Shown here: positions 15,116-57,875 of the stretch, in pieces | Layout: each line of letters opens with the position of its first letter | Numbering within the stretch: position 1 is the first letter of the stretch | From: Escherichia phage EJP2 | Sequence record: OQ411014.1 | Reading direction: 5' to 3' (one strand) | DNA length: 64,000 nucleotides | The notes under the pieces: model-generated | The model's database searches: none | The model's input: only the letters and a program-made list of their open reading frames with translations | What the model was told of the DNA's origin: nothing | Position numbers and translations under genes: made by a program

Positions 15116-15727
15116 ATGAAGAATCTAGATAAATTTGAAGACCTTATCAGTACTGCAAAAGCGTTCGGGTATTATAATTTCATCCAACGCTTTGGCCTCA
15201 AAGAAGAAAGTAACCGTTTCTGTAAAGTATATCGTGGTATCTGTACTGAAGATTCGGAGTATCAGTTCTTGATTGGAACTATGCGTTCTAGTGGTGGGAT
15301 TACATACATCGTTGAAGATAATAAAACAGGTGAGTACTTGAACATGTTCGCTCTTCGGGCAGAAGGTGAATCTGAACTTACTGCGATGTTTAAAGACTGG
15401 ACACGACTATCATACAAATACGATAAGTTCAACATCTACAACTACGAAACCAAGAAGATGGAAGTTGTACCGAACATTGACATGTCTGAAGATGAACATT
15501 TTCAGTTCATGCTATTGCATGATATTCCAGATTATGATACAGTACAGTCAGTACTGAAATATCATAAAGAAGTTTCACCAATGCTCAAAGAACATAAGCT
15601 ATTCAATATCATCACGTACACGATGCCTGATTTTGATTTCACAAAGATGAAAATCAAACCTGAAGTAATTGACACGTGTATGGATTTGATACCTGAATCA
15701 TCTTTATACAAACACAAGGATATATAA
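15116..15727 (+). CDS. paralogous early-gene family member
   Basis: start set to the ATG at 15116 just after the upstream stop (track ORF begins 15017); motif EDEHFQFMLLHDIP. Confidence 0.5.
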   Translation: MKNLDKFEDLISTAKAFGYYNFIQRFGLKEESNRFCKVYRGICTEDSEYQFLIGTMRSSGGITYIVEDNKTGEYLNMFALRAEGESELTAMFKDWTRLSYKYDKFNIYNYETKKMEVVPNIDMSEDEHFQFMLLHDIPDYDTVQSVLKYHKEVSPMLKEHKLFNIITYTMPDFDFTKMKIKPEVIDTCMDLIPESSLYKHKDI

Positions 15728-16866
15728 TGACTACAATGCGTGAACTATATGACGATTTGAATGCATTAGTATCTGATGCTTTCTATCACAAAGATTTCGT
15801 TAGTAAAGGCTCTGGTACGTACCGGATTTTCTCGTACCGTCTAGCGAGTGCTGCTGACTTCGAAGAACGTAATGCCCTTGAGTCACGTGGTATTATGTTC
15901 GAGATTGATGCAGATACTAAAGAGCCAATTCGTATTGCTTCTCGGACTATGAAGAAGTTTTTCAATGCAGGGGAAACCCAAGAATTACAGTTCAAGAAGG
16001 ACGTACCATTCAGTACTATCAAGTGCGTAATGCCTAAGTTGGATGGTTCTGTTATTGCAACCTTCATGGACAATGATGGAATTATTCGTACTAAATCAAA
16101 CTCTTCGTTGGAGTCTGAGCACGCGTATTACAGTACTGAAATGATTCACGCCAATGATAAGTTACACGATGCAATCATTTGTGCTGAAGCTGCTGGTTAT
16201 ACTGTAATTATGGAATTTACTTCACCTGAGTACCGGATTATTCTTCCTTACCAGAAAGATGAACTAACTGTATTGCGTATCATTCATCGTGAAAGTGGTG
16301 AAAGCATTATGGGTTCTGACTTGAAGGAGAAGTTCCCAGTACTGTATGAGTTTTCGGTATTTGGTGATAAAGACATTCATGAATCATTCCCTGTTCGCAG
16401 TACTTTAGTACAGAGTATTGCTGCTGTTCGTGAAATGGAAGAGATTGAGGGATATGTTGTAGTACTACAAGATGGCACTACATTCAAGCTCAAGACGGAT
16501 TGGTATTGCAATTTACATTTTACCAAAGATAGTATTATCATTGATTCTCGACTATTCAAGGCAGTACTGGATGGTAGTTCAGATGATTTACGTCAATTGT
16601 TTGAAAATGATGAATATGCACTAAAAAAAGTCGAAAAAATGGAAAATTTGATTTTTTTGTGCTATAATAAGTTAGAAGAGGATGTGACTACTTTTTACGA
16701 AAAGTACAAGCACCTTGATCAAAAAACGTATGCTATGAAGGTGTTGGGTGAATTATCGAAAGATATGAACCGACAAGGACTTGCATTCAACTTGTACAAT
16801 GGTAAACCTGTTGATTACAAAGAAGTACTACTAAAGTACATGAAGAACGTGTTAGAAGGATTCTGA
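15727..16866 (+). CDS. rnlA: RNA ligase 1 (T4 RnlA-like)
   Basis: N-terminal TYRIFSY...RGIMFE...RIASR.MKKFFN and the lysine motif KLDGS match my recollection of T4 Rnl1; 379 aa. Confidence 0.85.
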   Translation: MTTMRELYDDLNALVSDAFYHKDFVSKGSGTYRIFSYRLASAADFEERNALESRGIMFEIDADTKEPIRIASRTMKKFFNAGETQELQFKKDVPFSTIKCVMPKLDGSVIATFMDNDGIIRTKSNSSLESEHAYYSTEMIHANDKLHDAIICAEAAGYTVIMEFTSPEYRIILPYQKDELTVLRIIHRESGESIMGSDLKEKFPVLYEFSVFGDKDIHESFPVRSTLVQSIAAVREMEEIEGYVVVLQDGTTFKLKTDWYCNLHFTKDSIIIDSRLFKAVLDGSSDDLRQLFENDEYALKKVEKMENLIFLCYNKLEEDVTTFYEKYKHLDQKTYAMKVLGELSKDMNRQGLAFNLYNGKPVDYKEVLLKYMKNVLEGF

Positions 16867-17360: not shown

Positions 17361-17582
17361 ATGAAAGTTCAAATTATGCATAGTGTTGTCCAGGACATGT
17401 CTGTGGTGAAGTTTAGTACTCTAAGTGATTATTTCCGTTGTATCGAATTTATGGATACTAACGGTATACTGTGGGAACCAGTGAAGTACAGTTCCAGAAA
17501 CGATACCGCTAGTATTCGCGTTGATGAGGTAGCGTTGAATAAAATTTGTAAACGATATGGAGTTCAGAAATGCCTAAACTAG
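17361..17582 (+). CDS. hypothetical small protein
   Basis: 73-aa ORF with RBS GGAG. Confidence 0.5.
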   Translation: MKVQIMHSVVQDMSVVKFSTLSDYFRCIEFMDTNGILWEPVKYSSRNDTASIRVDEVALNKICKRYGVQKCLN

Positions 17583-18499
17583 TACTGACAGTTGGATTGC
17601 CTGGGTGCGGGAAAAGTACTTGGGCTACAGAAGAAGTAAAGAAATCCAAACGCAAAACTGTCATTCTAAATCGTGATGATATTCGTGAAACGATGTTCGG
17701 TGGTAACTGGGAATATCGTTATAGTAACGAGAACGAAAAATACGTCCAGAATACTCTCGCTTTTCAAGCCCAAGAAGCAGTGAAAAATGGCTGGGATATT
17801 ATCGTTGCAAATACTAATCTCAACCCAAAAGAACAAAACATGTGGAGTACTTTTGCAAAGGAGAATTCATATACCTTAGTACATCAGGACTTCTTCAAGG
17901 AGTTCAAGAAAGGTAAATCCTTTGTGCATGATTACTTCGCAATCAATGCTTTCGTGAAACATTGTAAAGAACGTAACCTAAAACGTTTGAAGTCTGTTCA
18001 AGAAAGTGTAATTGACCAAATGGCAACTTCGTACTATTACAGTACTGTTACGCCTCCACCAGTGATTGAAGGTGATGGTCTAAAATATTACATCGTAGAT
18101 ATTGACGGAACTCTAGCACATATGTTAGATTATCGTTCACCCTATGATGAAACAAAAGTTCATCTTGATGTACCTGATGAGTTCGTAATTTCAGTACTGC
18201 ACGCTCTTGTAAAAGACCCGTCAGTACGTATTATCCTCATGAGTGGTCGTCACGTCACCTGTAAAGAGCTAACACAAGAATGGTTAGCGAAGCATTCAGT
18301 ACCGTATCATGAGCTTCATATGCGTGCTGCGGACGATGTACGAGGGGACGATGTGGTGAAATATGAGTTGTATATGCAAGAAGTATACAACAAAAACAAA
18401 CGAGTCCAAGTTGTGTTCGATGACCGTCAAAAAGTTGTGAACACATGGCGTGAGTTGCTTGGCCTCAAAACCTTCCAGGTACAGCCTGGAAATTTCTAG
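17570..18499 (+). CDS. pseT: polynucleotide 5'-kinase / 3'-phosphatase (T4 Pnk-like)
   Basis: P-loop GLPGCGKSTWA at the N-terminus, HAD phosphatase motif YIVDIDGTLA and C-terminal FDDRQKVV; 309 aa. Confidence 0.85.
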   Translation: MPKLVLTVGLPGCGKSTWATEEVKKSKRKTVILNRDDIRETMFGGNWEYRYSNENEKYVQNTLAFQAQEAVKNGWDIIVANTNLNPKEQNMWSTFAKENSYTLVHQDFFKEFKKGKSFVHDYFAINAFVKHCKERNLKRLKSVQESVIDQMATSYYYSTVTPPPVIEGDGLKYYIVDIDGTLAHMLDYRSPYDETKVHLDVPDEFVISVLHALVKDPSVRIILMSGRHVTCKELTQEWLAKHSVPYHELHMRAADDVRGDDVVKYELYMQEVYNKNKRVQVVFDDRQKVVNTWRELLGLKTFQVQPGNF

Positions 18500-23863: not shown

Positions 23864-23891
23864 TTGACAATCTAGAATAATGTGGTATAAT
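23864..23891 (+). promoter_or_regulatory. sigma70-type promoter with extended -10
   Basis: TTGACA 23864-23869 and TGgTATAAT ending at 23891, upstream of the ClpP gene. Confidence 0.6.
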
Positions 23892-31790: not shown

Positions 31791-31791
31791 T

Positions 31792-32331
31792 ATGAATGTA
31801 ATTTCTCTGACTCCAGGTTTGAAAGCAGACTTGGATGCAGTAAAGGAAAGTAAGTACAATAAGATAACTAGCTGTACTGAACTAATCTTGAGTACTGATG
31901 GTTATTCTGAATGTAATCAATTGTTCGTTGATGCACTTCAACACATTGATAAAAAACTGTATCTAACCGATTTTCTTTATCTTATTCAGAGAACGTGGAT
32001 TAGCAATGCACAAAACAGAAATCACCTGAATTCAGGTGAAAGTACTTCAAGCTATGGTTATTGGAAATATAACTTCGCTGGAGTATCATCGGATACTTTA
32101 TACATTACGAACTATGTTCCGTCTGGAAATATCAGAATTGTCGATTCAGTACAACATTATGAATATTATGATATTGACACGGAAAAGCCAAGTCTGTATA
32201 CTATATCCGATATCGTAATTAGAAATGAAAAGACATTGTTCAACATGGTATTTCCAACGACTACTAAACTGTTTTCGAAGGAATACATGAAGTTCACAAT
32301 TCCATTGTCTCTGATTATGAACAACCAATAA
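31792..32331 (+). CDS. hypothetical protein
   Basis: 179-aa ORF between the two NAD salvage genes. Confidence 0.5.
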   Translation: MNVISLTPGLKADLDAVKESKYNKITSCTELILSTDGYSECNQLFVDALQHIDKKLYLTDFLYLIQRTWISNAQNRNHLNSGESTSSYGYWKYNFAGVSSDTLYITNYVPSGNIRIVDSVQHYEYYDIDTEKPSLYTISDIVIRNEKTLFNMVFPTTTKLFSKEYMKFTIPLSLIMNNQ

Positions 32332-32379
32332 GAACGCGGAGTTCTTATATAACATCAACTACCAAAGAGGTAATATAAA

Positions 32380-33852
32380 ATGCAAAACGTAAATTTCATC
32401 CTAAACGCAGATAGTTACAAGCACTCTCATTTACTAATGATGAAAGAAGGTGTTCAAGCTCTTGAATCAAACATCATTGCTCGTAAACCATCTAAATTCA
32501 CCAGTCATGTAGTTATGATGGGTCTTCAGATTTTCGTTCAGGAATATCTGGATATCACAATTACTGCGGCTGATATCGATGAAGCAGAGATTGAAACAAA
32601 CGAACGTGGTGATGATTTTGACCGCGACTTCTGGGAACACATCGTGAATGTACACAAAGGTAAACTACCTTTACATATCCGTGCTATCCCTGAAGGTACA
32701 GTAGTTCCAGTTGGTATGCCGTTGGTTCGCTCCTTCAGTACTGACCCACGTACTATGGTACTCGCTAGTTTCGTCGAAACTCAATTACAACGTGCAATCT
32801 GGTTCCAAACTACTGTTGCATCTAATGCTCGCAGTATCAAGGAATTTCTTGCTGATACTATGGAACGTCATGCTGGTCATCGCTTTGTGGATTATCATCT
32901 ACATAACTTCGGCTGTCGTGGTGCAAGTTCCTATGAAACAGCAATGCTCGCAGGTGTAGCTCATGCCGCTCTATTCAGTGGCTCTGACTGCCTATTAGCA
33001 AACCGTAGTATCAAATACTACTACAATACTACTAAACCATATGTTAGTAGTGTTATGGCGAGTGAACACAGTGCTACATGTTCTAACTCCGATGCAGACA
33101 AGCGTGATGATTCAGCAATGGCGTTGAAGATGGTTCGCCTATGGGAAAAGAAAGTAGATAAGTTCATTGCTAATGGTTCAGTTGGTGCACCCCCAATTGT
33201 TTCTGTAGTAATCGATACTTATGATGCTTATCGCTTTGTTCGTGAGTTCATCGGTACTCGTCTAAAATCTACAATCGAAGAGATTGCAGCTAAATGTCCA
33301 AGTGCTAAACTAGTAATGCGTCCTGATAGTGGTAATCCACTAACTATGCCAATCGAAATCGTATCTATCCTTATGGAGAAATTCGGTTCAGTACTGAATG
33401 CTAATGGCATGAAAGTACTTCCATCTTTCATTGGTGTTCTTCAGGGCGACGGAGTTTCAGAAAGTTCAATCCGTGAAATCGTCCACAACCTAGAGAAAAA
33501 GAACTACTCTCTAGAGAATCTAATCTTTGGTATGGGTGGTAAAAACTCCCACGTCGAAGGTGGTCGTGATGCATATTCTTTCGCCCAGAAAGGTTGTGCA
33601 CAGCAACTAGCTGATGGTACTTGGGAAGATTTGTTCAAAGATCCTATTACTGACGTTGGGAAAAAATCCCTTCGTGGTCGTGTAACTACTTACTTGTGCA
33701 AAGAAAGTGGGAAGATGATGGCTGAACGAATCGAACTACAAGAAGTAAATCCTTTCTTAGAAGATATGATGGTTGACATTTTTGTAAATGGTGATATCAT
33801 GAATCTAAGCTCTTTTGATGATGTACGTGCTCGTGCGAACAAGGGATTGTAA
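32380..33852 (+). CDS. nadV: nicotinamide phosphoribosyltransferase (NAMPT/NadV)
   Basis: 490 aa; N-terminal NADSYKHSH and overall pattern match the NAMPT family. Confidence 0.8.
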   Translation: MQNVNFILNADSYKHSHLLMMKEGVQALESNIIARKPSKFTSHVVMMGLQIFVQEYLDITITAADIDEAEIETNERGDDFDRDFWEHIVNVHKGKLPLHIRAIPEGTVVPVGMPLVRSFSTDPRTMVLASFVETQLQRAIWFQTTVASNARSIKEFLADTMERHAGHRFVDYHLHNFGCRGASSYETAMLAGVAHAALFSGSDCLLANRSIKYYYNTTKPYVSSVMASEHSATCSNSDADKRDDSAMALKMVRLWEKKVDKFIANGSVGAPPIVSVVIDTYDAYRFVREFIGTRLKSTIEEIAAKCPSAKLVMRPDSGNPLTMPIEIVSILMEKFGSVLNANGMKVLPSFIGVLQGDGVSESSIREIVHNLEKKNYSLENLIFGMGGKNSHVEGGRDAYSFAQKGCAQQLADGTWEDLFKDPITDVGKKSLRGRVTTYLCKESGKMMAERIELQEVNPFLEDMMVDIFVNGDIMNLSSFDDVRARANKGL

Positions 33853-38269: not shown

Positions 38270-39724
38270 ATGAAAAAATATGCTATTGATACAAACGTAC
38301 TTCTAAGCGATCCAAACGCAGCAACCGCTTTCAAAGGTGCTACAGTGGTTCTACCATTTACAGTACTGGAAGAAATGGACTCCATCAAGAGTCGTGGTGT
38401 TGACGTTAGCCGTGATGCACGTGTAGCAATTCGCAATATCAGTAACATCCTGGAAGACGCGTCTCATGAAGAGATTAGTACTACTGGGGTTGATATGTCC
38501 AAACTACATCCACATTTAGATTCCGACAGTCGTCTAATGATTGTTACATCTGAAGAAGCTGAAGCACTTCTACGTGTTGCAGGTATTGATAAGTCCGATG
38601 CTGAACTTACAAAAGTTGCTACACTAATGAACAGTACTGTACCGGATGACAAGATTATTCTTGTTGCTCTAGCTACAGAATCAGTACTGGTTACTCGTGA
38701 TATCAACATGCGTATCAAAGCTATGGCTTATGGTGTTGAAGTTCAGGACTATCGTAGTGATGTTACTATTTCCGATTCTGACCTACTACATATTGGGAAC
38801 CACAAACTAGAGTTTTCGTTCTGGGATACCATTGCGGATCGTGGTTTAGAAGTTTTCAGTACTAAAGAAGGTCGTAACACTTATCAACTAATTGCTAAAG
38901 ATGCAATTCAGGATCTACTACCAGAAAATCTATGCGTTGGTGACTATCTATATGATGACACTGATTTGCTAATGGTATATGATGGAGAAGGTGATCGTGA
39001 GTTCTCTGATGGTGAAGTTGATGACACAGTGTACTCCGTGTTCATTGATGTTGGTCAACACAGTGCAATGCGTACTAAGATTTGGGATATCAAAGCTAAG
39101 AACGTGAAACAAGCAATGGCAATCAACAGTATTCTTGACCCTAATGTTCACTTGACAGTACTGTTAGGTTCTGCGGGTACAGGTAAGACTTTGATTACTC
39201 TAGCATGTGCACTAGAACTAACATTAGAGAAGCGTCAGTACGATAAAGTTATTTTCTCTAAAACCCAAGACTCACAGTTTGATGAAATTGGTTTCTTACC
39301 AGGAACCGAAATGGAAAAAATGCTTCCGAATTGTGGACCTGCACTGGATGCATTGGAATTCCTTCACAAAGATGATGCTAACCCTCAAGGTTCAATTGAA
39401 GAAATCATCAAACGTAATGTTGTACAATTCAAAGCACTGAACTTTATTCGTGGACGTTCGTTTACCAATACAATTCTAGTTGTTGATGAATTCCAAAACA
39501 TTACTCCGGCTCAAGCTAAAACTATCTTGACACGGGCAGGAATGAACTGTAAAGTTATCATCATGGGTAACTTAGCACAGATTGATAGTAAGTTTATCAG
39601 TTCTGTAAACAGCGGTTTGACCTATGTAGTTGAGAAGTTCAAAGATTGGGAAGGTTGTCGTATCATCGAACTCGAAGGTGTTGTACGTTCTGCACTAGCT
39701 GAATTCGCTGAAGAAAATATGTAA
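38270..39724 (+). CDS. phoH: PIN-domain / PhoH-like ATPase fusion (PhoH2-type)
   Basis: N-terminal PIN-like YAIDTNVLLSDP; Walker A LLGSAGTGKT and conserved PhoH C-terminal region. Confidence 0.8.
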   Translation: MKKYAIDTNVLLSDPNAATAFKGATVVLPFTVLEEMDSIKSRGVDVSRDARVAIRNISNILEDASHEEISTTGVDMSKLHPHLDSDSRLMIVTSEEAEALLRVAGIDKSDAELTKVATLMNSTVPDDKIILVALATESVLVTRDINMRIKAMAYGVEVQDYRSDVTISDSDLLHIGNHKLEFSFWDTIADRGLEVFSTKEGRNTYQLIAKDAIQDLLPENLCVGDYLYDDTDLLMVYDGEGDREFSDGEVDDTVYSVFIDVGQHSAMRTKIWDIKAKNVKQAMAINSILDPNVHLTVLLGSAGTGKTLITLACALELTLEKRQYDKVIFSKTQDSQFDEIGFLPGTEMEKMLPNCGPALDALEFLHKDDANPQGSIEEIIKRNVVQFKALNFIRGRSFTNTILVVDEFQNITPAQAKTILTRAGMNCKVIIMGNLAQIDSKFISSVNSGLTYVVEKFKDWEGCRIIELEGVVRSALAEFAEENM

Positions 39725-48881: not shown

Positions 48882-51581
48882 ATGACTAAAAGAATTTATG
48901 GAGGCTTAGACGTTACTCATAACGTAACAGTTCAGGGCAAAAGGACAGTACAAGGTATCAATAATCAAGTATTCGATGCGAATGGTGATATGAAGATTAA
49001 TACCTATACTCAACAGGAATTACTCGATATTGTTAGCTTAATGCCAATATCACACTACGGTACTCACAACTACTTACCTGCTGGTGTTAGTGGGGACTTT
49101 AATGGTGCAGCGGAGAACCCAGCACAACGTAGAAACAAAATCCTACTGGAGAACGATGGTACACTAGTAATGCTACGTGCTGGTACAAACGGCAGTGTAG
49201 AAGGTTTATTCTATGCTTACCTACCAAATGCACTATCAGTTACTGATTTAGGTAGAGGTGTAAACACTGGTCGTCAGTACAAGCCAGGTTATTTTGGTAG
49301 TACTAAAACTGCTTTCGGTTTGTATAATACAGATGAGAACATTCTTCTAGGAAGATATTCTGATTCGTCAAATGGCAGTACTGGATGGTTTATTTCCATT
49401 ACTAACGGAACACTAGATGACACACAACATAATGGTTTCTTCTTGAATGCTTATACTGATATTGCCCCTCAAGGTGGTGTTGAATATGCAATGATGGCAG
49501 AAGATGGTTCAATTTACGTATTCAGTGTAGATACAAGTAATAACGAATTTAATATTGCAGTTGTTAGAGTTACTTTCAATTTGACGAATAAAACTTACAC
49601 AGCGTCAAGAATCACTGGTTGGACAACCAAGACGTTCTATAATACTACATATTCAGCAGATACTAATATTGTAGTGACGAAGAAAGTAAACTCAACTAAT
49701 ATCGCTGATAAGCCATATATGTACGTTCCGAATGGACTACTTGGTTTAGGTGTATACATGACGTCAATTGACTTGTGTGTAGCACAACAGCCAGGTACAC
49801 AGAACTTCCGCTTTAGAGTTAATGGTGATGCGTGGGCTACTATGGCAACGTATAATACCAGACCACAGCACAGTTATAGTTTCAACTTCAATATGAGTAC
49901 TAAACAATGTACGCTGGATGCAGGGAATGACATTGGTTCAAACGCAGCACCATTTATTGTTACTAATACAGGTTCACAATTAATTGCTTCTGGTAACGTA
50001 ATCAACCAAGATGATTTATATAATCACGGTGGGTGGAGAAACATTTATAGTTCTTACTATTACTTGGATATTGGTACAGTATTCTGTACTACGAGTCCTA
50101 ACTTGTCAGAACCATTGGGGATTGAAAAAGCAACATACCCAGCACAAAGTGTTTACAGTATGCTTAACGTAAGAGCAGTCAATGCATCAGCATTCAATAA
50201 AGGGAATCTTGGTCCTTCGTTCGGTTCAGCAGTTGGTTCTTACATTAACGGCGTAGAATTACTACCAGGTAACAGTACTAAACAATTCTCTCGTTCTTCT
50301 GGTACTGGTGCATTTAGACCATCATATGCAGTACATGCTGCTTCACCTACCTTTACGTTTAAATCTCTTTCAAGAGGTACAATGAAAGGTTATGAGCCTA
50401 CTGCTGAACGTGATTTCATTACAGATAATATAAACAACCGTATTTTCATTAGTACTGTATCTGGTTCGAATGTTACGACAAATGGTGGGATTTTCATGGT
50501 TGGTCAACGTTATTCACAGTCTTTGTCATTTGACAAACATGGTGTTGGTACTGGAACAATCTCGGTCACTGATTCAGTACTGGTAAATTTCAGAAATTCT
50601 GAATATGCAAAAGTACCTGCTTCATGGAATCTTTCTACAGCAGCAACTAAAGATATGACACTATTTGTTCCACAACAAACTGATATTCCTGCTTTTGTAA
50701 TGTTAAGTACTGTTACTACTGGAAATAAAAACTATATTAAGATTGTGGAAGTGAACGTTAATACCAGAAGTGGTAATATTACTTCAATTAGTTTTAAGCG
50801 TAATGTAATTGAAAACGTTTATGGTGATAGTTTTACACCAAATGGTGCTGGTGGTTTTGCTTCATCTTCTGTAGGTTTAACAATATATGATGGCGGTTCG
50901 TTCTACTTTATTGGTGGTTCAGATCCTTTATCTCACCCAACAATTGGCAATACGAATACACATCAATTCAGAGCTATTGTTACTAAAAGTACTGCACAAT
51001 TTGACAGCTTTATTATTTCAGGTTCACATGCTAGTTATGAACAGGGTATTCAACCTGCTGCTCTTCCTGGTATTGGCTTTGGGTATTTCCAAGCAATTGA
51101 CTACTCAAACAAAATGACATTCCAGAAATGTGGTACTACTGTTGCTGAATATAATGCATGGACAGCAATTGGTGATCCAATTAACGTAGTTTCACAAGAC
51201 GTTGCACAAGGATTTGTTGTTTACTTCAACGAAGAAACACCAGTAATGCTCAGTGGTAAGTCATTTACGATGCCAGTTCAAAGTGTTGATTTGAAAACTA
51301 TTAAAGCTAACCCAGCGAATACGACATTCCACATTTATGTGAGAATGAACCAAGGTAATGCAGAATATCATATAACTACTGAAGTTATTTCCGAAACTGG
51401 TAGTACTGCATATAACGTATTCTGGATTGGTACTGTTACTACGGATGCTATCCAAATCTCGACTATTAATGTATTCAAGCGTTCTCGTTTGGATGTATTT
51501 GGTGCATCACTTGAACCAACCGGATCATCATTCCCAGTGAGTTATGGTCTACCATCAGGCAACGGAACAATTAACTGGTAA
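48882..51581 (+). CDS. tail fibre / receptor-binding-like structural protein
   Basis: 899 aa, S/T/N/G/Y-rich and poor in charged residues; C-terminal ~110 aa module shared with the next two genes. Confidence 0.6.
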   Translation: MTKRIYGGLDVTHNVTVQGKRTVQGINNQVFDANGDMKINTYTQQELLDIVSLMPISHYGTHNYLPAGVSGDFNGAAENPAQRRNKILLENDGTLVMLRAGTNGSVEGLFYAYLPNALSVTDLGRGVNTGRQYKPGYFGSTKTAFGLYNTDENILLGRYSDSSNGSTGWFISITNGTLDDTQHNGFFLNAYTDIAPQGGVEYAMMAEDGSIYVFSVDTSNNEFNIAVVRVTFNLTNKTYTASRITGWTTKTFYNTTYSADTNIVVTKKVNSTNIADKPYMYVPNGLLGLGVYMTSIDLCVAQQPGTQNFRFRVNGDAWATMATYNTRPQHSYSFNFNMSTKQCTLDAGNDIGSNAAPFIVTNTGSQLIASGNVINQDDLYNHGGWRNIYSSYYYLDIGTVFCTTSPNLSEPLGIEKATYPAQSVYSMLNVRAVNASAFNKGNLGPSFGSAVGSYINGVELLPGNSTKQFSRSSGTGAFRPSYAVHAASPTFTFKSLSRGTMKGYEPTAERDFITDNINNRIFISTVSGSNVTTNGGIFMVGQRYSQSLSFDKHGVGTGTISVTDSVLVNFRNSEYAKVPASWNLSTAATKDMTLFVPQQTDIPAFVMLSTVTTGNKNYIKIVEVNVNTRSGNITSISFKRNVIENVYGDSFTPNGAGGFASSSVGLTIYDGGSFYFIGGSDPLSHPTIGNTNTHQFRAIVTKSTAQFDSFIISGSHASYEQGIQPAALPGIGFGYFQAIDYSNKMTFQKCGTTVAEYNAWTAIGDPINVVSQDVAQGFVVYFNEETPVMLSGKSFTMPVQSVDLKTIKANPANTTFHIYVRMNQGNAEYHITTEVISETGSTAYNVFWIGTVTTDAIQISTINVFKRSRLDVFGASLEPTGSSFPVSYGLPSGNGTINW

Positions 51582-51590
51582 GGAGAAATT

Positions 51591-52178
51591 ATGCCATTAC
51601 AATACAGAACGGACGTGAACGCAGCAGGACAAATTAAAGTACAGAATAAAACAACTGGTGTTTCTATTACATCAGGTAACGGTCAAGTATATTCTACAAC
51701 ATCTGCGGGGGCGATTACGTTCCCAGTACTGACAACTGATGATGTGGATTATATTACACTTGAATTACCACTCTCTCAGTTCGGAGAATTGTATGAGAAT
51801 ACTAGTCTTAATATTACAAGTACTGGTTTAGTACTGAAGTTTAATAGAATAATTCCACTCTTCATGAGTGGGATTTACTACGATGTTCCAGTTCAGAACA
51901 TCACAGCACAAGCTGCAACGTCAGGTACAGCAACATATTATGTGTATGTTAAACTAGAACTTGGTGCACCAAAATATTTCATCTCCAGAACAGAAGGTGT
52001 TGAGAACGAAATAACCATGTTCATAGGTACTATCACAGTAAGTACTACCACAATAACAGCAATCAATATTAACAAAGTTTCCAGATTCGGTACATACAGA
52101 CCGAGTACTACACAGAAAGGTTCTTCTTTCCCTGTCAGTACTGGACACCCTTCACAAACTGGTTCAATTAACTGGTAA
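51591..52178 (+). CDS. short paralog carrying only the fibre C-terminal module
   Basis: 195 aa; C-terminus RFGTYRPSTTQKGSSFPVSTGHPSQTGSINW matches the endings of both flanking large proteins. Confidence 0.55.
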   Translation: MPLQYRTDVNAAGQIKVQNKTTGVSITSGNGQVYSTTSAGAITFPVLTTDDVDYITLELPLSQFGELYENTSLNITSTGLVLKFNRIIPLFMSGIYYDVPVQNITAQAATSGTATYYVYVKLELGAPKYFISRTEGVENEITMFIGTITVSTTTITAININKVSRFGTYRPSTTQKGSSFPVSTGHPSQTGSINW

Positions 52179-52187
52179 GGAAATAAC

Positions 52188-54941
52188 ATGTCATCTAAAA
52201 GAGTAATAGGTTCAGTTGAGTTTTTAAGTAACTTAGCTGTAAATGGGAAATACGCAATGCGTTCCTTTAATGGTGTCAATCCAGATGCCAATACTGGTAT
52301 AATCACTTATCCATTTTATACCAGAGAAGAAGTTCAGAAGATTCTCGATATACTCCCTGTTTCACGTATAGGTGAAATGGACTATCTACCACCGAACGTA
52401 AGTGGTTCCTTTAGTGGAGCTACTTCATTCTCGAATGATCGCAGAGTTCAGCCATGTATTATTGAAGATGATGGTACAGCCGTAATTATTCGCCCTGGTA
52501 CGAATGGTAGTCAGTTTGATTTTTATTATGCTTACATCCGTAACGTCAGAAATATCCCAACTCTAACACAAAGTGATATTGTTCAGACGAATACCAGATA
52601 TCACCCATCATATCTTACTAGTACTCAAAAGATTGAACAATTTTACGGTACTGATGGATATGATCTTCTTTGGTACAGAGTTTCTGACTCAGTTAATAGT
52701 TCAAACTATTTTGCAATTACATTAACTAACGGTTCCTTTAACGTAGTAGGTCACCAACATGCTCTTATTCCACAAACATCTATGCCTAATTTCACACCAG
52801 CATATGCTCATATCGTGAATGGTTCAGTATACATGTGGGGCTATGACAGTACTTTAGGTTCAGGTAGAGCATTGAAGTTATACACTATCCCAACTAGTTC
52901 GTTGCGTTCTGGTGTTACTACTGGTTTAACTGCTGTCACTGGATTTAATGGAAAAACTATCAACGGTAATGCTTATACAGCAGCCAGTACTGCTAGGATT
53001 TATGATACATATGCAAGTACTACCAGTACTGCTGATTGCTTAATTCAATACACGTCTAACATGTATTCTCCTGAATATCACGACTACGCCATCTCCAATG
53101 CAATGGCGGCTGGTAATGCTGATAATACACAGATTCGTTTCACTATGTTCCCTACATATCGTTACGGTTCTGCGTATGGTTTTAGTGGTATATTCATGTA
53201 CGCAATTAGTTTAGTCTATAATATCAGTACTAAAACATTTACGTACGATACTACATCTTTAGGTAAAATTGTGGTGAATGCTACACTAAATGGTTCTACA
53301 ATGACCTATACAGAAACTGCTAACCCATATTTGGTTGATGCAACTTCATGGCGTGGTTTTGGTGCAAGTCTAGGTAACTGTGGAACAATCTGTCAAGCAG
53401 GTGATGGTTTCATGGTGAGTACTCGCTCTCGTTGGGCAAGTTCTGCTCCTTACGGTGTCAGTACTTCTAAGATTAATAACTTTACTTCTCAATTCGATTC
53501 TATTAAAATGACTGGTAGAAGTGTTACTGCAAATACTCAACTATTTGCTAACCCAATCTACGGTTCTGCAATTGGTGAGAACTTGATGGGTCCACGTCTG
53601 TTAAGTAAAACTCGTATGATTCTTGCATGTTCAGGTACATACGATGGTGTATCCAACGCAAGCTATGACAATACTGTAGTTGCGGACTTCGGTACTGATT
53701 CGAACTTCTCATACAAGTCAATGACTCAAGGTACACTTACTGGGTATGCACCACAAACGTATCGTAAATTCGCTAATAATGACAACTTCAGACTATCAGA
53801 ATTAGTAACACTAATGGACAGTACTGGTAATGTTCAAGCAAGTAGTACTGCATTCATCGAGAACGTTAAGTACACTGGTGGGATTGGTATTAACCCTGAT
53901 ACACTTGAATACACTGGCAGTACTGTTAATATGTCCAATGCAGTTATCCAATCACTTAAACAAGGTATTGCAACTTCTGCTGGTATTCCATTGAATACAA
54001 GTTTGCTTACAGTGTATTACATTCCTGATACATCATATTGCAATCACCAAGCAGTACTAATGGTTCGTAATCCTGATAACACTGGCGTTGTAGTACTAGC
54101 TGAAATGAATTTAACTACAAGTACTTCTGGAAGTACAATTACTGTTACTGGTGGTTCTGTAATAAGAACTTTCGTTCAGAACAGACCAAATATTACTTCA
54201 GTAAATGGTGGGAACTACGCTCGTAACGTTGGTGTTTGTGCTGGTAAATTCAGTGGTTTTAATTACCTTAGTGTTCACTCAGCGAATAACTTTGGTGTTC
54301 CTGGTGATGCAAGGTCTTATTCGTTCTTTGCAAAAGTTAAGGGTGGTGCTATAGTATCACAGAGAATCGATGAGTCCTATTATTCACAGACATATGGCAG
54401 GACTGGTGGTTTCCTACCAGGGAAAGGTTTCGGTTATTATGATAACTCAGTGAGTGATTACCAGACCAAATCCGTGTTCCAACTCTTCGGTACTACTGAA
54501 GCACAGATGGATGCACTAATTGCTGGTACTGGAACATCAACACCTGTTGTTGTTATGTCTCAAGAAGTTCCTGAAGGTTTTAGTGTTTACTTTACACAAG
54601 AACTACCAGTATTCTTAGGTGGTATGTACGATAAGCTACCAATCCAGACAGTTGATTTGAGAACTATCAAAGCTGATCCATCCAATACTACTTTCTATAT
54701 CTACGTATCAATGGATAGAAGTAAAGGTGAAGCATCATACGTTATCAGTACTGCACTCTTGGATGAAACTCTAACCAGAGCATTCATTGGTACTATTGTG
54801 ACTATTGATGCAGGTATTGACCGGATTGATGCAGAGAAGGTAACACGCTTCTTGACTTACAGACCAAGTACTTACAAGAGGGGTTCTGCAATCCCTGCGA
54901 GTACTGGTGTTCCATCTGGGACTGGTTCACGCTGGCATTAA
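52188..54941 (+). CDS. tail fibre / receptor-binding-like structural protein
   Basis: 917 aa; shares VDL(K/R)TIKA(N/D)P...TTF(H/Y)IYV and C-terminal motifs with 48882-51581. Confidence 0.6.
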   Translation: MSSKRVIGSVEFLSNLAVNGKYAMRSFNGVNPDANTGIITYPFYTREEVQKILDILPVSRIGEMDYLPPNVSGSFSGATSFSNDRRVQPCIIEDDGTAVIIRPGTNGSQFDFYYAYIRNVRNIPTLTQSDIVQTNTRYHPSYLTSTQKIEQFYGTDGYDLLWYRVSDSVNSSNYFAITLTNGSFNVVGHQHALIPQTSMPNFTPAYAHIVNGSVYMWGYDSTLGSGRALKLYTIPTSSLRSGVTTGLTAVTGFNGKTINGNAYTAASTARIYDTYASTTSTADCLIQYTSNMYSPEYHDYAISNAMAAGNADNTQIRFTMFPTYRYGSAYGFSGIFMYAISLVYNISTKTFTYDTTSLGKIVVNATLNGSTMTYTETANPYLVDATSWRGFGASLGNCGTICQAGDGFMVSTRSRWASSAPYGVSTSKINNFTSQFDSIKMTGRSVTANTQLFANPIYGSAIGENLMGPRLLSKTRMILACSGTYDGVSNASYDNTVVADFGTDSNFSYKSMTQGTLTGYAPQTYRKFANNDNFRLSELVTLMDSTGNVQASSTAFIENVKYTGGIGINPDTLEYTGSTVNMSNAVIQSLKQGIATSAGIPLNTSLLTVYYIPDTSYCNHQAVLMVRNPDNTGVVVLAEMNLTTSTSGSTITVTGGSVIRTFVQNRPNITSVNGGNYARNVGVCAGKFSGFNYLSVHSANNFGVPGDARSYSFFAKVKGGAIVSQRIDESYYSQTYGRTGGFLPGKGFGYYDNSVSDYQTKSVFQLFGTTEAQMDALIAGTGTSTPVVVMSQEVPEGFSVYFTQELPVFLGGMYDKLPIQTVDLRTIKADPSNTTFYIYVSMDRSKGEASYVISTALLDETLTRAFIGTIVTIDAGIDRIDAEKVTRFLTYRPSTYKRGSAIPASTGVPSGTGSRWH

Positions 54942-54954
54942 TTTAAACTCAATT

Positions 54955-54983
54955 GAGGTTGTCTATTGACAGCCTCTTTTTTT
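54955..54983 (+). terminator. intrinsic terminator
   Basis: GAGGTTGTC-TATT-GACAGCCTC followed by a T7 run. Confidence 0.65.
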
Positions 54984-54994
54984 CTTGATATAAT
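54966..54994 (+). promoter_or_regulatory. sigma70-type promoter overlapping the terminator
   Basis: TTGACA 54966-54971 lies in the terminator stem; TGaTATAAT ends at 54994. Confidence 0.5.
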
Positions 54995-55021
54995 GTTTAG
55001 ACTCATGGAAGGAGGAAAATT

Positions 55022-55333
55022 ATGCAATACAGAACACCAGTACTGATCAATCGATACAAAAGTAAAGACTTTGATGTTTACATTGGTCGTGGGACAAAAT
55101 GGGGAAACCCGTTCCCAATCGATGAAGCATGTGGTCAAACTCGCCTAATCGTTATTGAAATGTACAGACACCAAATGTATGAATGGCTAGAAAATGGAAC
55201 CATCACTGTTCAGGATATTTTGGATTTATCGGGAAAAACCATTGCATGTTCTTGTGCACCAAAGGCATGTCATGGAGATATAATCATAGAGGTATTCAAT
55301 GAAATAGTGAGTATGATGAATGCAGGAACATAA
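55022..55333 (+). CDS. DUF4326-like protein
   Basis: YIGRGTKWGNPF motif near the N-terminus, as I recall for DUF4326 proteins. Confidence 0.45.
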   Translation: MQYRTPVLINRYKSKDFDVYIGRGTKWGNPFPIDEACGQTRLIVIEMYRHQMYEWLENGTITVQDILDLSGKTIACSCAPKACHGDIIIEVFNEIVSMMNAGT

Positions 55334-55721
55334 AATATATGACATCATTAAAACTCTTAAAACTTGTAAGAGAGTAACATTATCTGAAAAAGTTTACTGC
55401 GGTTTAAATGATAAAAAGTGTATCATGTTCGATTGTATAGATGATGGTGAATCCAGCATTAGTATTGCTAGTCCTAAGAATCCTAATGGTGATTTTATCT
55501 TCTGTACAGTTACTGATGAACTTGAATTTGTACTCGTCAAGAGTGATGGTGCACAATCTGAAATCTTAGACTTGAGTACTGAAGATAGATTCTTTCAACG
55601 AAGTTTACTCTTTGACTTATCATTAACCTATGATGAGTATCAATCAGTACTTCATAATTTCAACAAATTTTATAACGGACTAATCAGTACTGTTATAATC
55701 TATTCAACCGAGGTCATATAA
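55320..55721 (+). CDS. hypothetical protein
   Basis: 133-aa ORF. Confidence 0.5.
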   Translation: MQEHKIYDIIKTLKTCKRVTLSEKVYCGLNDKKCIMFDCIDDGESSISIASPKNPNGDFIFCTVTDELEFVLVKSDGAQSEILDLSTEDRFFQRSLLFDLSLTYDEYQSVLHNFNKFYNGLISTVIIYSTEVI

Positions 55722-56968
55722 TGTCAAAAAATATGCTCGAAAATATCATCGTAAAACACTACGCTGGTAGTATCGCTTATGGTACAAATACTCCCTTATC
55801 AGATGTTGATTTCCGTGGAATCTTTATGGCTCCAAAGGAATTCATCTTGTCTCCGTTCGTAAACGTAGGGGAAGCATCTGATTCAAAAGAAGAAGATACT
55901 AAATTCTACGAACTCAATAAGTTCATGAAACTAAATGTCGATGCGAACCCGAATATCCTCGAAACACTATGGGTCGATGATGAACACATCGTTGAAAGTA
56001 CTGAAATGTACCAACATCTTCGCAAGCACAGAAGTGAACTACTAAGTAATAAGATTGCATTTACTTATACTGGATTCGCATATAACCAAGTTCACCGCAT
56101 GAGCAACCATAATGGCTGGATGGATAAAGAGAGAATTGCTGAACGCAGACTCAATGAAATCATCGAAAAACATCCTTGTATTGAAGTGAAAGAGTGGATG
56201 TACGAATATTTCCCTCATTATGTCATTGACCGGATTGACTTCTCTAATGTAAAAGGTTATAGTGATGATGTTGATTTGGACTTGGATAAGTTCTTGCGTG
56301 ATAGTTCTCTGCAACTGATCAGTACTAAATCCTTAGCACAGCATCACTTCGTGCGTTTAGTACATAATTACTTACCACAGAAAGTACTTGACCGTGATTT
56401 CAACTTAGCTCATTTCAATACGAATCATGAACTAATTCACTACGGTGATAATATCTTTGCAGTAGTTCCAACTCAGGGGAAATCGAAAGTACTTTCAGTA
56501 CATAACGATTTAGTTTGGGATTCAAAGAAAGAACGTACTCCTGAAGAACTAAAAGTACTTCCATCTTTGATTGTGAAATTCAATCGCAAAGAATATGAAG
56601 AACTGAATGATAAACGCAAGCACTATCACAAGTGGAAAGAGAACCGTAACAGTATTCGTGCTGAACTGGAGTCAAAGAATGGCTTCGATACTAAGCACGC
56701 AATGCACGTGGTTCGTTTATTACGTACAGCAAAAGAAGCACTGTTGACTGGTGTCATCAACGTCAAACGTCCTGATGCGGAAGAATTACTTGCAATCCGT
56801 AATGGTGCTTGGACATATGAAGAAATGATGAAGTACTTTGAATCTGAATCTAAATTAGTAATGAACTTAGGTAAAACATCAAAAGTACTTCCATCGTCCC
56901 CAAACCGTAAACTAGCAACTCAATTAGTACTAGACTTACGTGAGATGCATTGGAAACAAGGAAAATAA
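55721..56968 (+). CDS. Pol-beta-superfamily nucleotidyltransferase
   Basis: N-terminal YAGSIAYGTNTPLSDVDFRGIF (GS...SDxD motif); 415 aa. Confidence 0.55.
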   Translation: MSKNMLENIIVKHYAGSIAYGTNTPLSDVDFRGIFMAPKEFILSPFVNVGEASDSKEEDTKFYELNKFMKLNVDANPNILETLWVDDEHIVESTEMYQHLRKHRSELLSNKIAFTYTGFAYNQVHRMSNHNGWMDKERIAERRLNEIIEKHPCIEVKEWMYEYFPHYVIDRIDFSNVKGYSDDVDLDLDKFLRDSSLQLISTKSLAQHHFVRLVHNYLPQKVLDRDFNLAHFNTNHELIHYGDNIFAVVPTQGKSKVLSVHNDLVWDSKKERTPEELKVLPSLIVKFNRKEYEELNDKRKHYHKWKENRNSIRAELESKNGFDTKHAMHVVRLLRTAKEALLTGVINVKRPDAEELLAIRNGAWTYEEMMKYFESESKLVMNLGKTSKVLPSSPNRKLATQLVLDLREMHWKQGK

Positions 56969-56969
56969 T

Positions 56970-57122
56970 ATGCCTGAACTACAGAAACATATTGACGCTA
57001 TCATTGAACTTTACTTCAACGAAAAAGATACAGTAAAGCGTTATGAAATTGCAGCAGAAGTACAACATGCACTAGATGAAGCACGTCAAGCTACTGTTCA
57101 TAAAATCACTAAAGGCAAATAA
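56970..57122 (+). CDS. hypothetical small protein
   Basis: ATG at 56970 after RBS AAGGAA; 50 aa. Confidence 0.4.
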   Translation: MPELQKHIDAIIELYFNEKDTVKRYEIAAEVQHALDEARQATVHKITKGK

Positions 57123-57129
57123 CGAAAAA

Positions 57130-57154
57130 GGCCCAGATTATTCTGGGCTTTTTT
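57130..57154 (+). terminator. intrinsic terminator
   Basis: GGCCCAGA-TTAT-TCTGGGCT followed by a T6 run. Confidence 0.65.
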
Positions 57155-57198
57155 ATGTGCTAAATATTTGTACATTCATCATCAACACGGAGGTACAT

Positions 57199-57555
57199 AT
57201 GGGTGTATTCACGAAGTACTGGAAACTTGCTTCAGTACTTATTCTGTTACTAGGCTCATTCTATTCAGGGTGGTACGTAAAGACTCTAAAGGATGGTTAT
57301 GAACAGAATATTGTTAAAGAAGTAAAACAAGAAGTACAGGGTGCATTAAAGGAAGTAAAAGAACAGAACTACCAAAACTACTTAAACACGAAAGAGTATT
57401 TGGATTCTAAACAAATCAATGTAATCAAAGAAAAGATTCCAGTTATCATTGAGAAAGAAAAAGAGATATACTTCCAGTACTGTTTAGAAGAGGAAGGAGT
57501 AGAGGCTCTACGTATTCTACGTGAGAACTCAAGAATTGCGAGAGGTATGAAATGA
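57199..57555 (+). CDS. i-spanin (Rz-like), candidate
   Basis: start set at the ATG after RBS GGAGG; N-terminal transmembrane helix then a charged coiled-coil-like region; overlaps the lipoprotein gene. Confidence 0.5.
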   Translation: MGVFTKYWKLASVLILLLGSFYSGWYVKTLKDGYEQNIVKEVKQEVQGALKEVKEQNYQNYLNTKEYLDSKQINVIKEKIPVIIEKEKEIYFQYCLEEEGVEALRILRENSRIARGMK

Positions 57556-57875
57556 AAAAGTTAATCCTTAGTATTGTATTCGCTTGTACAGTACTTCTAT
57601 GTGGTTGTGCACCAAAAGCATTAGTAACAATGGAAGCACCTATACTGGAGACTGATTCTAAGTTCCTGGAGCGTTGTACTGCTGATACACCAGTACCGGA
57701 AAATCCTTACATTGATAAAGACGGGAAGAAGCTATACAATGGTATTTCCAGCATGGAAGCCTTTCAAAAATGGCAAACAGTATATGATGATTGTGCACTC
57801 AAACATGATGCACTAATAAATGTTATACTAGAATTGCAAAAAAATCGTACAGTACTATTGAAGAAAGAACATTGA
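57552..57875 (+). CDS. o-spanin (Rz1-like outer-membrane lipoprotein), candidate
   Basis: signal peptide with lipobox (VLLCGC); ATGA overlap with the preceding gene. Confidence 0.5.
   Translation: MKKLILSIVFACTVLLCGCAPKALVTMEAPILETDSKFLERCTADTPVPENPYIDKDGKKLYNGISSMEAFQKWQTVYDDCALKHDALINVILELQKNRTVLLKKEH

Follow-up and report, generated by a model that had tools for sequence, protein, structure and literature searches.

Downstream of a tail-fibre-like gene of Escherichia phage EJP2 (record OQ411014.1), a DUF4326-like gene is followed, two genes on, by a gene for a large protein with the signature of a Pol-beta-type nucleotidyltransferase (NTase), which raises the question of what such an enzyme does in a phage and whether the two genes form one functional unit. 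An original prediction, made from the letters of the DNA, had presented the genes as one unit and had left the function of the NTase open, naming tRNA- or RNA-modifying enzymes and nucleotide-signal synthases as options. Analyzing the 64,000-nucleotide stretch of DNA that contains the locus (hereafter the window), we came, with moderate confidence, to the following reading: the NTase is an RNA-repair enzyme of the RlaP family that works with the phage's own Pnkp and Rnl1, the DUF4326 protein acts independently of it, the 133-aa protein encoded between them is an accessory, and all are expressed from an early four-gene cassette.

Results

The genes lie in an early, terminator-insulated cassette

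The locus comprises the following features, of which the first three genes were recovered exactly as originally described:

54955..54986, + strand: intrinsic terminator, a 9-bp G+C-rich hairpin (54955-54976) followed by a U-tract
54966..54994, + strand: sigma-70 promoter TTGACA-17-TATAAT with an extended -10 TG, 12/12 match
55022..55333, + strand: DUF4326 protein, 103 aa, homologue of T4 NrdA.1 (PF14216; phrog_464)
55320..55721, + strand: 133-aa protein (phrog_22376, E 4.1e-17)
55721..56968, + strand: RlaP-family Pol-beta nucleotidyltransferase, 415 aa (Pfam RlaP PF10127; phrog_388)
56971..57122, + strand: fourth small ORF, 50 aa, ATG at 56971 (weak phrog_18343 match, E 7.2e-05)
57131..57155, unstranded: strong intrinsic terminator, a G+C-rich hairpin (57131-57148) preceded by an A-run and followed by a U-run

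The upstream terminator closes the tail-fibre-like gene (52188-54941), and its hairpin (MFE -15.3 kcal/mol, z -5.7) was equalled by 0/200 shuffles; the 3' arm of this hairpin overlaps the -35 hexamer of the promoter, which ends 28 nt 5' of the DUF4326 start codon, with a GGAGGA ribosome-binding site at about position 55010. The window has four perfect sigma-70 sites, each on the + strand, where 0.16 would be expected (four were reached in 0/100 shuffles). The promoter points to transcription of the cassette by the host RNA polymerase, i.e., early in infection. At the other end, the downstream hairpin (MFE -20.2 kcal/mol, z -7.1) terminates the cassette before the spanin genes (57199-57875) begin, and it is potentially bidirectional because an A-run precedes it and a U-run follows it. 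Thus, the promoter and terminator proposed to bracket the unit are both present, but the unit they enclose (about 54966-57155, + strand) holds four genes rather than three, since the 50-aa ORF, starting 2 nt after the NTase stop codon, also precedes the terminator. This ORF had a homologue in 0/83 of the loci compared below, and Munch and 121Q carry other genes at its position. A search of the window found neither non-coding RNAs nor tRNAs associated with the locus. In the phage collection, the closest nucleotide matches were two Escherichia jumbo phages, which align with 34% of the query at ~73% identity. We read the cassette as an accessory, early and terminator-insulated one of a Rak2/121Q-like jumbo phage, with tail-fibre genes on one side and spanin genes on the other.

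The 415-aa protein belongs to the RlaP family

The GS…SDxD signature of minimal NTases, on which the original call was based, is present at the N-terminus of the 415-aa protein as GS...SDVD (G16-S17 and S27-D28-V29-D30). The protein matched Pfam RlaP PF10127 (E 3e-16, 60.3 bits with a cut-off of 23, residues 9-131) and, at full length (residues 2-413), phrog_388 'nucleotidyltransferase' (E 3.8e-70), and a precomputed PF10127 assignment was found on all but two (P0096 and P0109) of the 120 homologues listed. The Pfam alignment covers only positions 20-144 of the 249 in the RlaP profile, i.e., its N-terminal half; the C-terminal half went undetected by Pfam, also when the middle and C-terminal segments of the protein were scanned alone. 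G16, S17, D28, D30, E58 and D59 are invariant in an alignment of 32 sequences, and D28, D30 and D59 match identical residues of T4 NrdC.11, to whose N-terminal domain the protein is 30% identical (E 3e-14) and which has been placed in PF10127 (PMC12776372). By its sequence, then, the NTase is a member of the RlaP family. A Pfam search at E <= 0.1 returned only RlaP and a sub-threshold NTP_transf_2 match, and with the PolyA_pol head domain (PF01743) absent from its results we rejected a CCA-adding enzyme or class II poly(A) polymerase.

Structure prediction, suggested as a check of the original call, gave a confident AF2 model (pLDDT 90.4) with an N-terminal NTase fold, in which the catalytic D28, D30 and D59 sit at the strand ends of the predicted sheet, and a C-terminal helical domain. 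The NTase thereby shares with the RlaP family the N-terminal Pol-beta domain and the GS motif with three carboxylates, and its predicted helical C-terminal domain may correspond to that in the crystal structure of PfRlaP, where an N-terminal NTase domain is followed by a C-terminal helical one and the last helix packs back on the NTase domain (PMC12776372). Together, the model and the alignment place the core at about residues 1-105, followed by a long helix, a helical insertion (about 138-205), a small beta subdomain (about 211-287) and the helical domain (289-414). At 415 aa the protein is longer than the Pfam model (about 250 aa) and T4 NrdC.11 (336 aa). The beta subdomain is common to the phage forms of about 350 aa, and, among the 32 aligned sequences, those with the insertion of ~65-70 aa come from Rak2-like phages and a small number of others; we regard this insertion in a jumbo-phage RlaP as a mildly new point. 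The model found phage NTases in BFVD (down to E 1.3e-30) and superposed on the whole length of phage NTases of 232-345 aa, with TM scores of 0.6-0.79 normalised to the target.

The informative PDB fold matches of the model (Foldseek) were all Pol-beta NTases, and the top ones, to chains of Hailong HalB (PDB 9dbj and 9dbh; E 4.9e-3, probability 0.98), bring in a second reading, namely that the enzyme is signal-related or anti-defence, for example making a HalB-like oligo-dA that would keep the effector of a Hailong-type system shut, or a different decoy nucleotide. The early promoter is compatible with such a role, and bacterial RlaP can use dATP as a donor (PMC12776372). However, the likeness to HalB consists of the Pol-beta NTase core and a helical region, HalB has only about 217 aa, and the match is weak, with TM scores of 0.20 (query-normalised) and 0.34 (target-normalised), an rmsd of 17.6 A and 17% identity, and barely ahead of those to kanamycin NTase and MNT, which points to a generic Pol-beta fold. 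Neither single-sequence nor profile searches with the NTase, the DUF4326 protein and the 133-aa protein returned anything significant among PDB sequences, and HalB identity was rejected with a TM score of 0.34 at best and no profile match. Scanned against NCBIfam and PADLOC, the three proteins likewise gave no matches (for the NTase, none to the PADLOC models at E <= 0.1), and the sole fold match to a cyclic-dinucleotide synthase, the CD-NTase CdnE, had an E value of 3.3, which speaks against the nucleotide-signal synthase option of the original prediction. With its sequence falling in RlaP, we consider a signal-related or anti-defence NTase quite unlikely.

An RNA-repair role is proposed for the NTase

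Membership of RlaP narrows what had been left open. RlaP has been described as the RNA-repair NTase found most often in jumbo phages, with a distribution mirroring that of RNA ligases (PMC7824862), and in a 2025 preprint bacterial RlaPs added one or two NMPs to an RNA 3'-OH, which they strictly required, favoured nicked-tRNA mimics and Mn2+, accepted dATP as a donor, did not use DNA or protein and improved the aminoacylation of a repaired tRNA that had lacked one nucleotide (PMC12776372). The enzymes assayed there were two from Pseudomonas, which fall in a different sequence cluster (PMC12776372), and an RNA substrate and a repair role are assigned to the phage protein by analogy.

Two further repair genes are encoded in the window:

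15727..16866, + strand: T4 Rnl1 (gp63)-type RNA ligase (RNA_lig_T4_1 E 1.1e-18; T4_Rnl1_C E 1.5e-17)
17570..18499, + strand: polynucleotide kinase-phosphatase, Pnkp (HAD_PNKP E 7.3e-41; AAA_33 E 1.6e-19)

The ligase is about 36% identical to RnlA of T4-like phages such as T6, and only three short ORFs separate the two genes. These are clear homologues of the T4 pair that counters PrrC, and we infer that they are the sealing and end-healing partners of the RlaP enzyme, which, compared with T4 tRNA repair, would add a step, the restoration of excised nucleotides. Although Rnl1 and Pnkp are encoded in the same genome, the NTase gene lies ~39 kb from them and outside any RNA-ligase operon. At 5/66 other viral loci, Rnl1 or Pnkp lay no more than 6 kb from the RlaP homologue, a frequency that we judged to be about chance level by our own estimate for two genes co-resident in genomes of 100-170 kb, and so adjacency to an RNA ligase was dropped as support for repair in this phage clade.

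In the proposed mechanism, the 415-aa product would act as a template-independent RNA nucleotidyltransferase, with D28, D30 and D59 as its carboxylates and probably Mn2+ as its metal. When an RloC-type anticodon nuclease of the host cuts a tRNA and removes a nucleotide, RlaP would restore the missing nucleotide by extending the 3'-OH of the broken RNA with one or two NMPs; the break would then be healed by the phage Pnkp and sealed by the phage Rnl1, and translation could continue during infection. We know of no host RloC-like nuclease for this phage.

The DUF4326 protein probably acts as a separate small enzyme

The motif that had suggested DUF4326, YIGRGTKWGNPF (residues 20-31), was borne out by the profiles: the ORF matched Pfam PF14216 (E 2.5e-21, 76.6 bits with a cut-off of 25, profile positions 7-82 of 82) and phrog_464 (E 1.6e-31). 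It is thus a full-length match that keeps the family motifs YIGRxxxWGNP and CxCxPxxCHG, and I21, R23, G28, N29, L69, C76, C78, P80, C83, H84 and G85 are invariant across 53 sequences. Like most phage DUF4326 proteins it has the stand-alone form of about 100 aa, unlike the forms fused to SLOG, Macro or NADAR. Its T4 homologue is NrdA.1 (40% identity, E 9e-22); T4 gp49.2, annotated 'ribonucleotide reductase', has no similarity to it, and T4 NrdA.2 is unrelated.

[quoted passage not shown] The AF2 model of the ORF is confident (pLDDT 96.4) and places the Cys/His motif where strand 73-76 meets helix 84-101, and a Foldseek search of the PDB with it turned up neither a rhodanese nor a phosphatase as a relative (best E 5.4); that a confidently predicted fold lacks a solved structural relative is, in our view, a mildly new point. 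The strand-loop-helix motif C76-x-C78-x-P-x-x-C83-H84-G85, together with the invariant R23, suggests that the substrate is a phosphorylated nucleotide, a derivative of ADP-ribose or one related to DNA modification. Across 62 diverse loci, the neighbours of DUF4326 genes include RNR, thymidylate synthase, DNA methylases, PhoH, DUF488 and SLOG, and some of the proteins are fused to mSLOG or UDG, a pattern that agrees with earlier reports (PMC7824862, PMC9503650). Most likely, then, the protein is an independent small enzyme, with a putative chemistry of this kind.

The 133-aa protein is restricted to Rak2-like phages

The 133-aa gene shares its first 14 nt with the end of the DUF4326 gene, and its stop codon overlaps the start codon of the NTase by one base (position 55721), which suggests that the two are translationally coupled. 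The protein was found in 51 phage records, all of them Rak2-like, and its gene abuts the NTase gene in most listed records that give both positions; this confinement to one clade, together with the position just 5' of the NTase, is again mildly new. A word-indexed homologue search gave only a 99%-identical copy, and an exhaustive search of 1.84 billion proteins, yielding five representative clusters, added four same-size cluster representatives and one marginal match within a 1962-aa protein; neither revealed a remote family. We found no Pfam match, no PDB relative and no conserved Cys/His, Arg/His or catalytic-looking motif.

The tight pairing would fit a toxin-antitoxin-like system in which the NTase, like MNT or ANT enzymes, NMPylates a protein or small molecule and the 133-aa protein is its substrate or partner: the fold matches include ANT(4') and MNT antitoxins, and the 133-aa ORF is directly 5' of the NTase where both positions could be read, with the stop/start overlap in the window. 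Yet those fold matches are weak (E >= 0.04 overall and E >= 0.17 for MNT), proteins were not labelled by the bacterial RlaPs (PMC12776372), and the 133-aa protein lacks conserved catalytic motifs, HEPN-like ones included, and is absent beside most RlaP homologues, including an insertion-bearing one from another lineage, so that we regard NMPylation as very improbable. An MNT-HEPN or AbiEii-type pair was rejected on the same MNT values and the missing Arg/His motif. The insertion-bearing homologue just mentioned (P0110), which sits among gp32, UvsX and UvsW genes, also led us to discard co-evolution of the RlaP insertion with the 133-aa protein as a general rule. Returning to RNA repair by RlaP, we take the 133-aa protein to be a lineage-specific accessory factor, possibly a partner of the enzyme.

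DUF4326 and RlaP are neighbours in one lineage

We compared 83 loci, 17 of them Rak2-like and 66 other viral RlaP loci. DUF4326 was adjacent to RlaP at 13/17 of the former and at 0/66 of the latter, and even within the Rak2-like clade it is missing at the 121Q and RaK2 loci and lies 1-2.5 kb off in others; in Turkey3 it is 9 kb from the NTase, and the T4 genes for NrdA.1 and NrdC.11 are about 86 kb apart, NrdA.1 adjoining nrdA/td rather than sharing a cassette with RlaP as here. The adjacency is thus a lineage-specific synteny, and, with DUF4326 found elsewhere by genes of DNA and nucleotide metabolism or fused to SLOG, the two proteins are probably functionally independent. DUF4326 would be co-transcribed with RlaP through a shared cassette ancestry and not through a joint function.

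What could still speak for a single unit is the strict 3'-OH requirement of RlaP and the phosphate-processing role predicted for DUF4326: the latter might clear a 2',3'-cyclic or 3'-phosphate to leave a 3'-OH for RlaP, with the 133-aa protein bridging or regulating the two. Successive genes of the trio overlap or adjoin, all three have a single promoter and terminator in common, and the set is kept in the window, in Munch/7t3, in Hallingskeid and in several metagenomic relatives, although the flanking cassette genes vary. Against this stand the scattered positions of DUF4326 given above, its neighbours, among which Pnkp was counted in only 1/112 cases, and the fact that the phage already encodes Pnkp for end healing. 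We consider one functional module unlikely, and the original treatment of DUF4326 and the NTase as a unit finds no backing in the comparison of loci, where the two are adjacent only in part of the Rak2-like clade. A fuller version, in which the trio is an RNA-end restoration module of one Rak2-like branch, the 133-aa protein docking on the RlaP insertion for tRNA specificity, is in our estimate rather more doubtful; there, DUF4326 could supply an end-processing activity that has long been sought, by removing a 2',3'-cyclic, 3'-, 2'- or ADP-ribose-linked phosphate from RNA. If true, it would give the first biochemical function for DUF4326, a family found in over 2,000 phage genomes, that of T4 among them.

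Discussion

DUF4326 and RlaP are both already known and widespread in phages (NrdA.1 and NrdC.11 in T4), and the cassette is an ordinary member of these families and not a new system. Its value lies in correct annotation: relatives are often labelled 'hypothetical protein', 'nucleotidyltransferase' or, in the case of DUF4326 and wrongly, 'NrdA-like ribonucleotide reductase', a label that appears to stem from the place of the gene beside nrdA in T4-like phages. DUF4326, a very widespread small phage protein without a solved structural relative, is the more interesting problem, and this locus gives little leverage on it.

As to RNA repair by RlaP, if the phage enzyme restores nucleotides excised by RloC-type nucleases, it would fill a gap already known in the arms race between PrrC/RloC and T4 repair; this idea has been published before and is not particular to this locus. 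The window also encodes an NAD+ salvage pair. Rnl1, Pnkp and RlaP would make up a full tRNA-repair toolkit in one jumbo phage, alongside that pair, and the combination fits the view that jumbo phages are heavily armed against host defences that target RNA and deplete NAD.

A four-gene cassette bounded by transcription signals

The DUF4326 gene and the nucleotidyltransferase (NTase) gene belong to a compact cassette on the + strand, located between tail-fibre-like and spanin genes.

Features of the cassette and its flanks
48882-54941: three consecutive tail-fibre-like genes (899, 195 and 917 aa)
54955-54986: upstream hairpin with U-tract (z -5.7)
54966-54994, + strand: sigma-70 promoter, perfect TTGACA-17-TATAAT with extended -10 TG
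55022-55333, + strand: DUF4326 ORF, 103 aa, carrying YIGRGTKWGNPF; PF14216, phrog_464
55320-55721, + strand: middle ORF, 133 aa; sole match phrog_22376, which has no assigned function
55721-56968, + strand: NTase ORF, 415 aa, N-terminus ...HYAGSIAYGTNTPLSDVDFRGIF; PF10127, phrog_388
56971 (ATG) to 57122, + strand: fourth ORF, 50 aa, 2 nt past the NTase stop
57131-57148: strong downstream terminator with U-tract (MFE -20.2 kcal/mol, z -7.1)
from 57199: spanin pair, 3' of the downstream terminator

The three longer ORFs are exactly as originally described, and neighbours within this trio overlap or abut; at base 55721 the middle ORF's stop codon overlaps the NTase's start codon. The unit had also been described as bracketed by a promoter and a terminator; the bracket is correct, but it encloses four genes, as the 50-aa ORF also precedes the downstream terminator. 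The upstream hairpin, whose 3' arm overlaps the promoter, follows the end of the 917-aa tail-fibre-like gene at 54941. The window contains four perfect-consensus sigma-70 promoters (TTGACA-16/18-TATAAT), each on the + strand (1846-1874, 23864-23891, 25327-25356 and 54966-54994), against 0.16 expected by chance, which argues for a real promoter class, probably the early class of this phage, transcribed by host RNA polymerase.

As for the flanking fibre genes, the 195-aa and 917-aa proteins carry the same C-terminal module (...TYRPST..KGS..P.STG.PS.TGS..), and residues 796-914 of the latter match phrog_26864, suggesting a duplicated or swappable domain, or an intramolecular-chaperone-like tail.

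A search of a phage collection returned no close DNA-level match to the window. NTases of the Rak2/121Q/PBECO4/Munch group, jumbo phages with genomes of 340-390 kb, share 58-68% identity with the one encoded in the window. The window phage is a member of this group, and a protein identical to its NTase is present on eight metagenomic contigs. The homologous cassette of Salmonella phage Munch has annotated terminators at both ends and a central DUF4326/129-aa/NTase trio. The terminator-bounded cassette lies between tail-fibre and spanin genes and holds ten genes in Munch (locus L001, 1598-7130) versus four in the window (54955-57155), so that its boundaries are conserved while its cargo varies. 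With the DUF4326/small protein/RlaP trio as the common core, the site acts as a hot spot of accessory-gene turnover.

The 415-aa protein is an RlaP-family nucleotidyltransferase

The prediction of a Pol-beta-type NTase was borne out by profile matches far beyond chance, to PF10127 (RlaP, 'RNA repair pathway DNA polymerase beta family'; E 3e-16, 60.3 bits, cut-off 23) and to phrog_388 ('nucleotidyltransferase'; E 3.8e-70, residues 2-413). The alignment is limited to the first half of PF10127, as is that of T4 NrdC.11, a protein assigned to this family by the RlaP preprint (PMC12776372). NrdC.11 is 30% identical to the NTase across the N-terminal domain (E 3e-14), with the GS, DxD and third-Asp positions in common, and tblastn recovered relatives in 914 phage records, T4-like phages included. 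Residues G16, S17, D28, D30, E58 and D59 are invariant in an alignment of 32 sequences. Membership in the RlaP family is close to certain.

The AlphaFold2 model of the protein is confident (pLDDT 90.4) and contains the NTase core (~105 residues), followed by a long helix, a helical segment (~138-205) that the alignment identifies as an insertion relative to ~350-aa phage homologues, a small beta subdomain (~211-287) and a C-terminal helical domain (289-414). Among predicted viral structures it matched numerous phage 'nucleotidyltransferases' (lowest E 1.3e-30), some of them 232-345 aa long and aligned at target-normalised TM of 0.6-0.79, which indicates that the core resembles a minimal enzyme of RlaP type into which two elements have been inserted. 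No match came from profile searches of PDB sequences. Solved-structure matches were weak and all to Pol-beta NTases, in a set that evidently did not include the crystal structure of PfRlaP; the best was Hailong HalB (E 4.9e-3, TM <=0.34), followed by kanamycin NTase and MNT antitoxins. The HalB match prompted the idea of an oligonucleotide-signal or anti-defence enzyme, which the evidence gathered disfavours and which we regard as very unlikely.

The 133-aa protein occurs in Rak2-like phages only: it is present in 51 records, and 1.84 billion representatives contain five 50%-identity clusters of it. No relative beyond this set and no conserved Cys/His or acidic motif was detected. Wherever found, its gene is directly 5' of that of the NTase, with a gap of ~470 nt in RaK2, and its product may be an RlaP accessory subunit; an insertion-bearing RlaP of another lineage occurs without it. 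That it partners the NTase in NMPylating a protein or small molecule is a most improbable reading, likewise disfavoured by the evidence gathered.

DUF4326 is a lineage-specific neighbour of RlaP

The DUF4326 assignment holds well past chance (PF14216, E 2.5e-21, 76.6 bits, cut-off 25; phrog_464, E 1.6e-31). Relatives were found by tblastn in 2,126 phage records, and the T4 counterpart is NrdA.1 (40% identity, E 9e-22), encoded between td and nrdA (NC_000866 142671-142997). From this position appears to stem the label 'ribonucleotide reductase NrdA-like', a propagated mislabel in PHROGs (phrog_24867) and several phage records. Conserved residues are I21, R23, G28, N29, L69, C76, C78, P80, C83, H84 and G85. 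In the very confident AlphaFold2 model (m2534b3d1d0a4, pLDDT 96.4) the CxCxPxxCHG motif sits at a strand-to-helix junction, the placement expected of a phosphate-binding loop. Neither Foldseek (best E 5.4) nor sequence searches found a relative in the PDB, leaving a family known from over 2,000 phage genomes without any solved structural homologue. DUF4326 has been predicted to be a distinctive rhodanese-phosphatase clade that either processes terminal phosphates of ADP-ribose derivatives or links NAD signalling to DNA modification (PMC9503650, PMC7824862); our results are compatible with this prediction without confirming it.

An HMM scan covered 83 RlaP loci (17 Rak2-like, 66 from other lineages). 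In 13 of the 17 Rak2-like loci DUF4326 was located upstream of RlaP in the same orientation, five directly adjacent via the 133-aa gene and the others 1-2.5 kb apart. The scan found none near RlaP in 121Q, RaK2 or any of the 66 other loci; the distance is 9 kb in Turkey3 and ~86 kb to the RlaP homologue in T4. Across 62 diverse viral loci, DUF4326 neighbours included ribonucleotide reductase, thymidylate synthase, DNA methyltransferases, PhoH (3 of 112 neighbours), DUF488, SLOG proteins, exonucleases and homing endonucleases, and four fusions were seen.

Fusions in viral DUF4326 loci
L105, 3108-3794: mSLOG-DUF4326
L106, 3147-3803: mSLOG-DUF4326
L112, 2400-3050: mSLOG-DUF4326
L107, 3153-4082: UDG-superfamily/DUF4326 protein, matches overlapping or interleaved

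In L101, a seeming fusion of DUF4326 to RNA polymerase may simply reflect crude ORF calling. The census reproduces the published picture; the context it shows is not one of RNA repair, and this weighs against an end-restoration module made up of the three genes, in which DUF4326 would serve as RNA-end phosphatase, an unlikely arrangement that the evidence as a whole disfavours. DUF4326 is probably not functionally tied to RlaP; it is a lineage-specific co-passenger from a widely catalogued family.

Other genes of the window
15727-16866: T4 Rnl1-type (gp63-like) RNA ligase
17570-18499: Pnkp
21966-23381: ATP-dependent DNA ligase
23942-24634: ClpP-like protease
25421-26212: calcineurin-like phosphoesterase
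30717-31790: bifunctional NMN adenylyltransferase-Nudix protein
32380-33852: nicotinamide phosphoribosyltransferase
38270-39724: PIN-PhoH fusion protein, 484 aa
46527-48332: anaerobic ribonucleotide reductase NrdD

The NAD+ salvage pair (30717-33852) is of interest beside a protein predicted to act on ADP-ribose derivatives. We take it to resemble the phage NAD+ reconstitution pathway (NARP2), a counter to NAD-depleting defences.

A predicted role in tRNA repair

The name RlaP, given by Burroughs and Aravind, reflects operonic association with RNA ligases. Iyer et al. 2021 (PMC7824862) describe RlaP as the most widespread of the repair NTases in jumbo phages, its distribution mirroring that of RNA ligases, and predict that before ligation it restores nucleotides that RloC and similar nucleases have excised. 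In a December 2025 preprint, two assayed Pseudomonas RlaPs extended RNA 3'-OH ends by one or two NMPs (or dNMPs), did not use DNA or protein, favoured Mn2+ and a nicked-tRNA mimic, and increased aminoacylation of tRNA repaired after the loss of one nucleotide (PMC12776372).

Rnl1 and Pnkp, the T4-type tRNA repair pair, are encoded ~39 kb 5' of the NTase, with three small ORFs of unassigned function (79, 73 and 73 aa) between them, so the phage possesses a complete heal-and-seal pathway. Of the 66 loci of other viral lineages, 5 have Rnl1 or Pnkp within 6 kb of RlaP, which we judge to be about chance for co-resident genes and therefore give little weight.

To summarize, the DUF4326 protein and the NTase belong to already known families, as originally called, and the NTase, whose function had been left open, should instead be labelled an RNA-repair NTase of RlaP type, a kind of enzyme that jumbo phages and T4 were already described to have. 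As to substrate and biological role, we infer, and consider rather likely, that the 415-aa phage RlaP would restore lost 3' nucleotides on cleaved tRNA, which Pnkp and Rnl1 would then repair.
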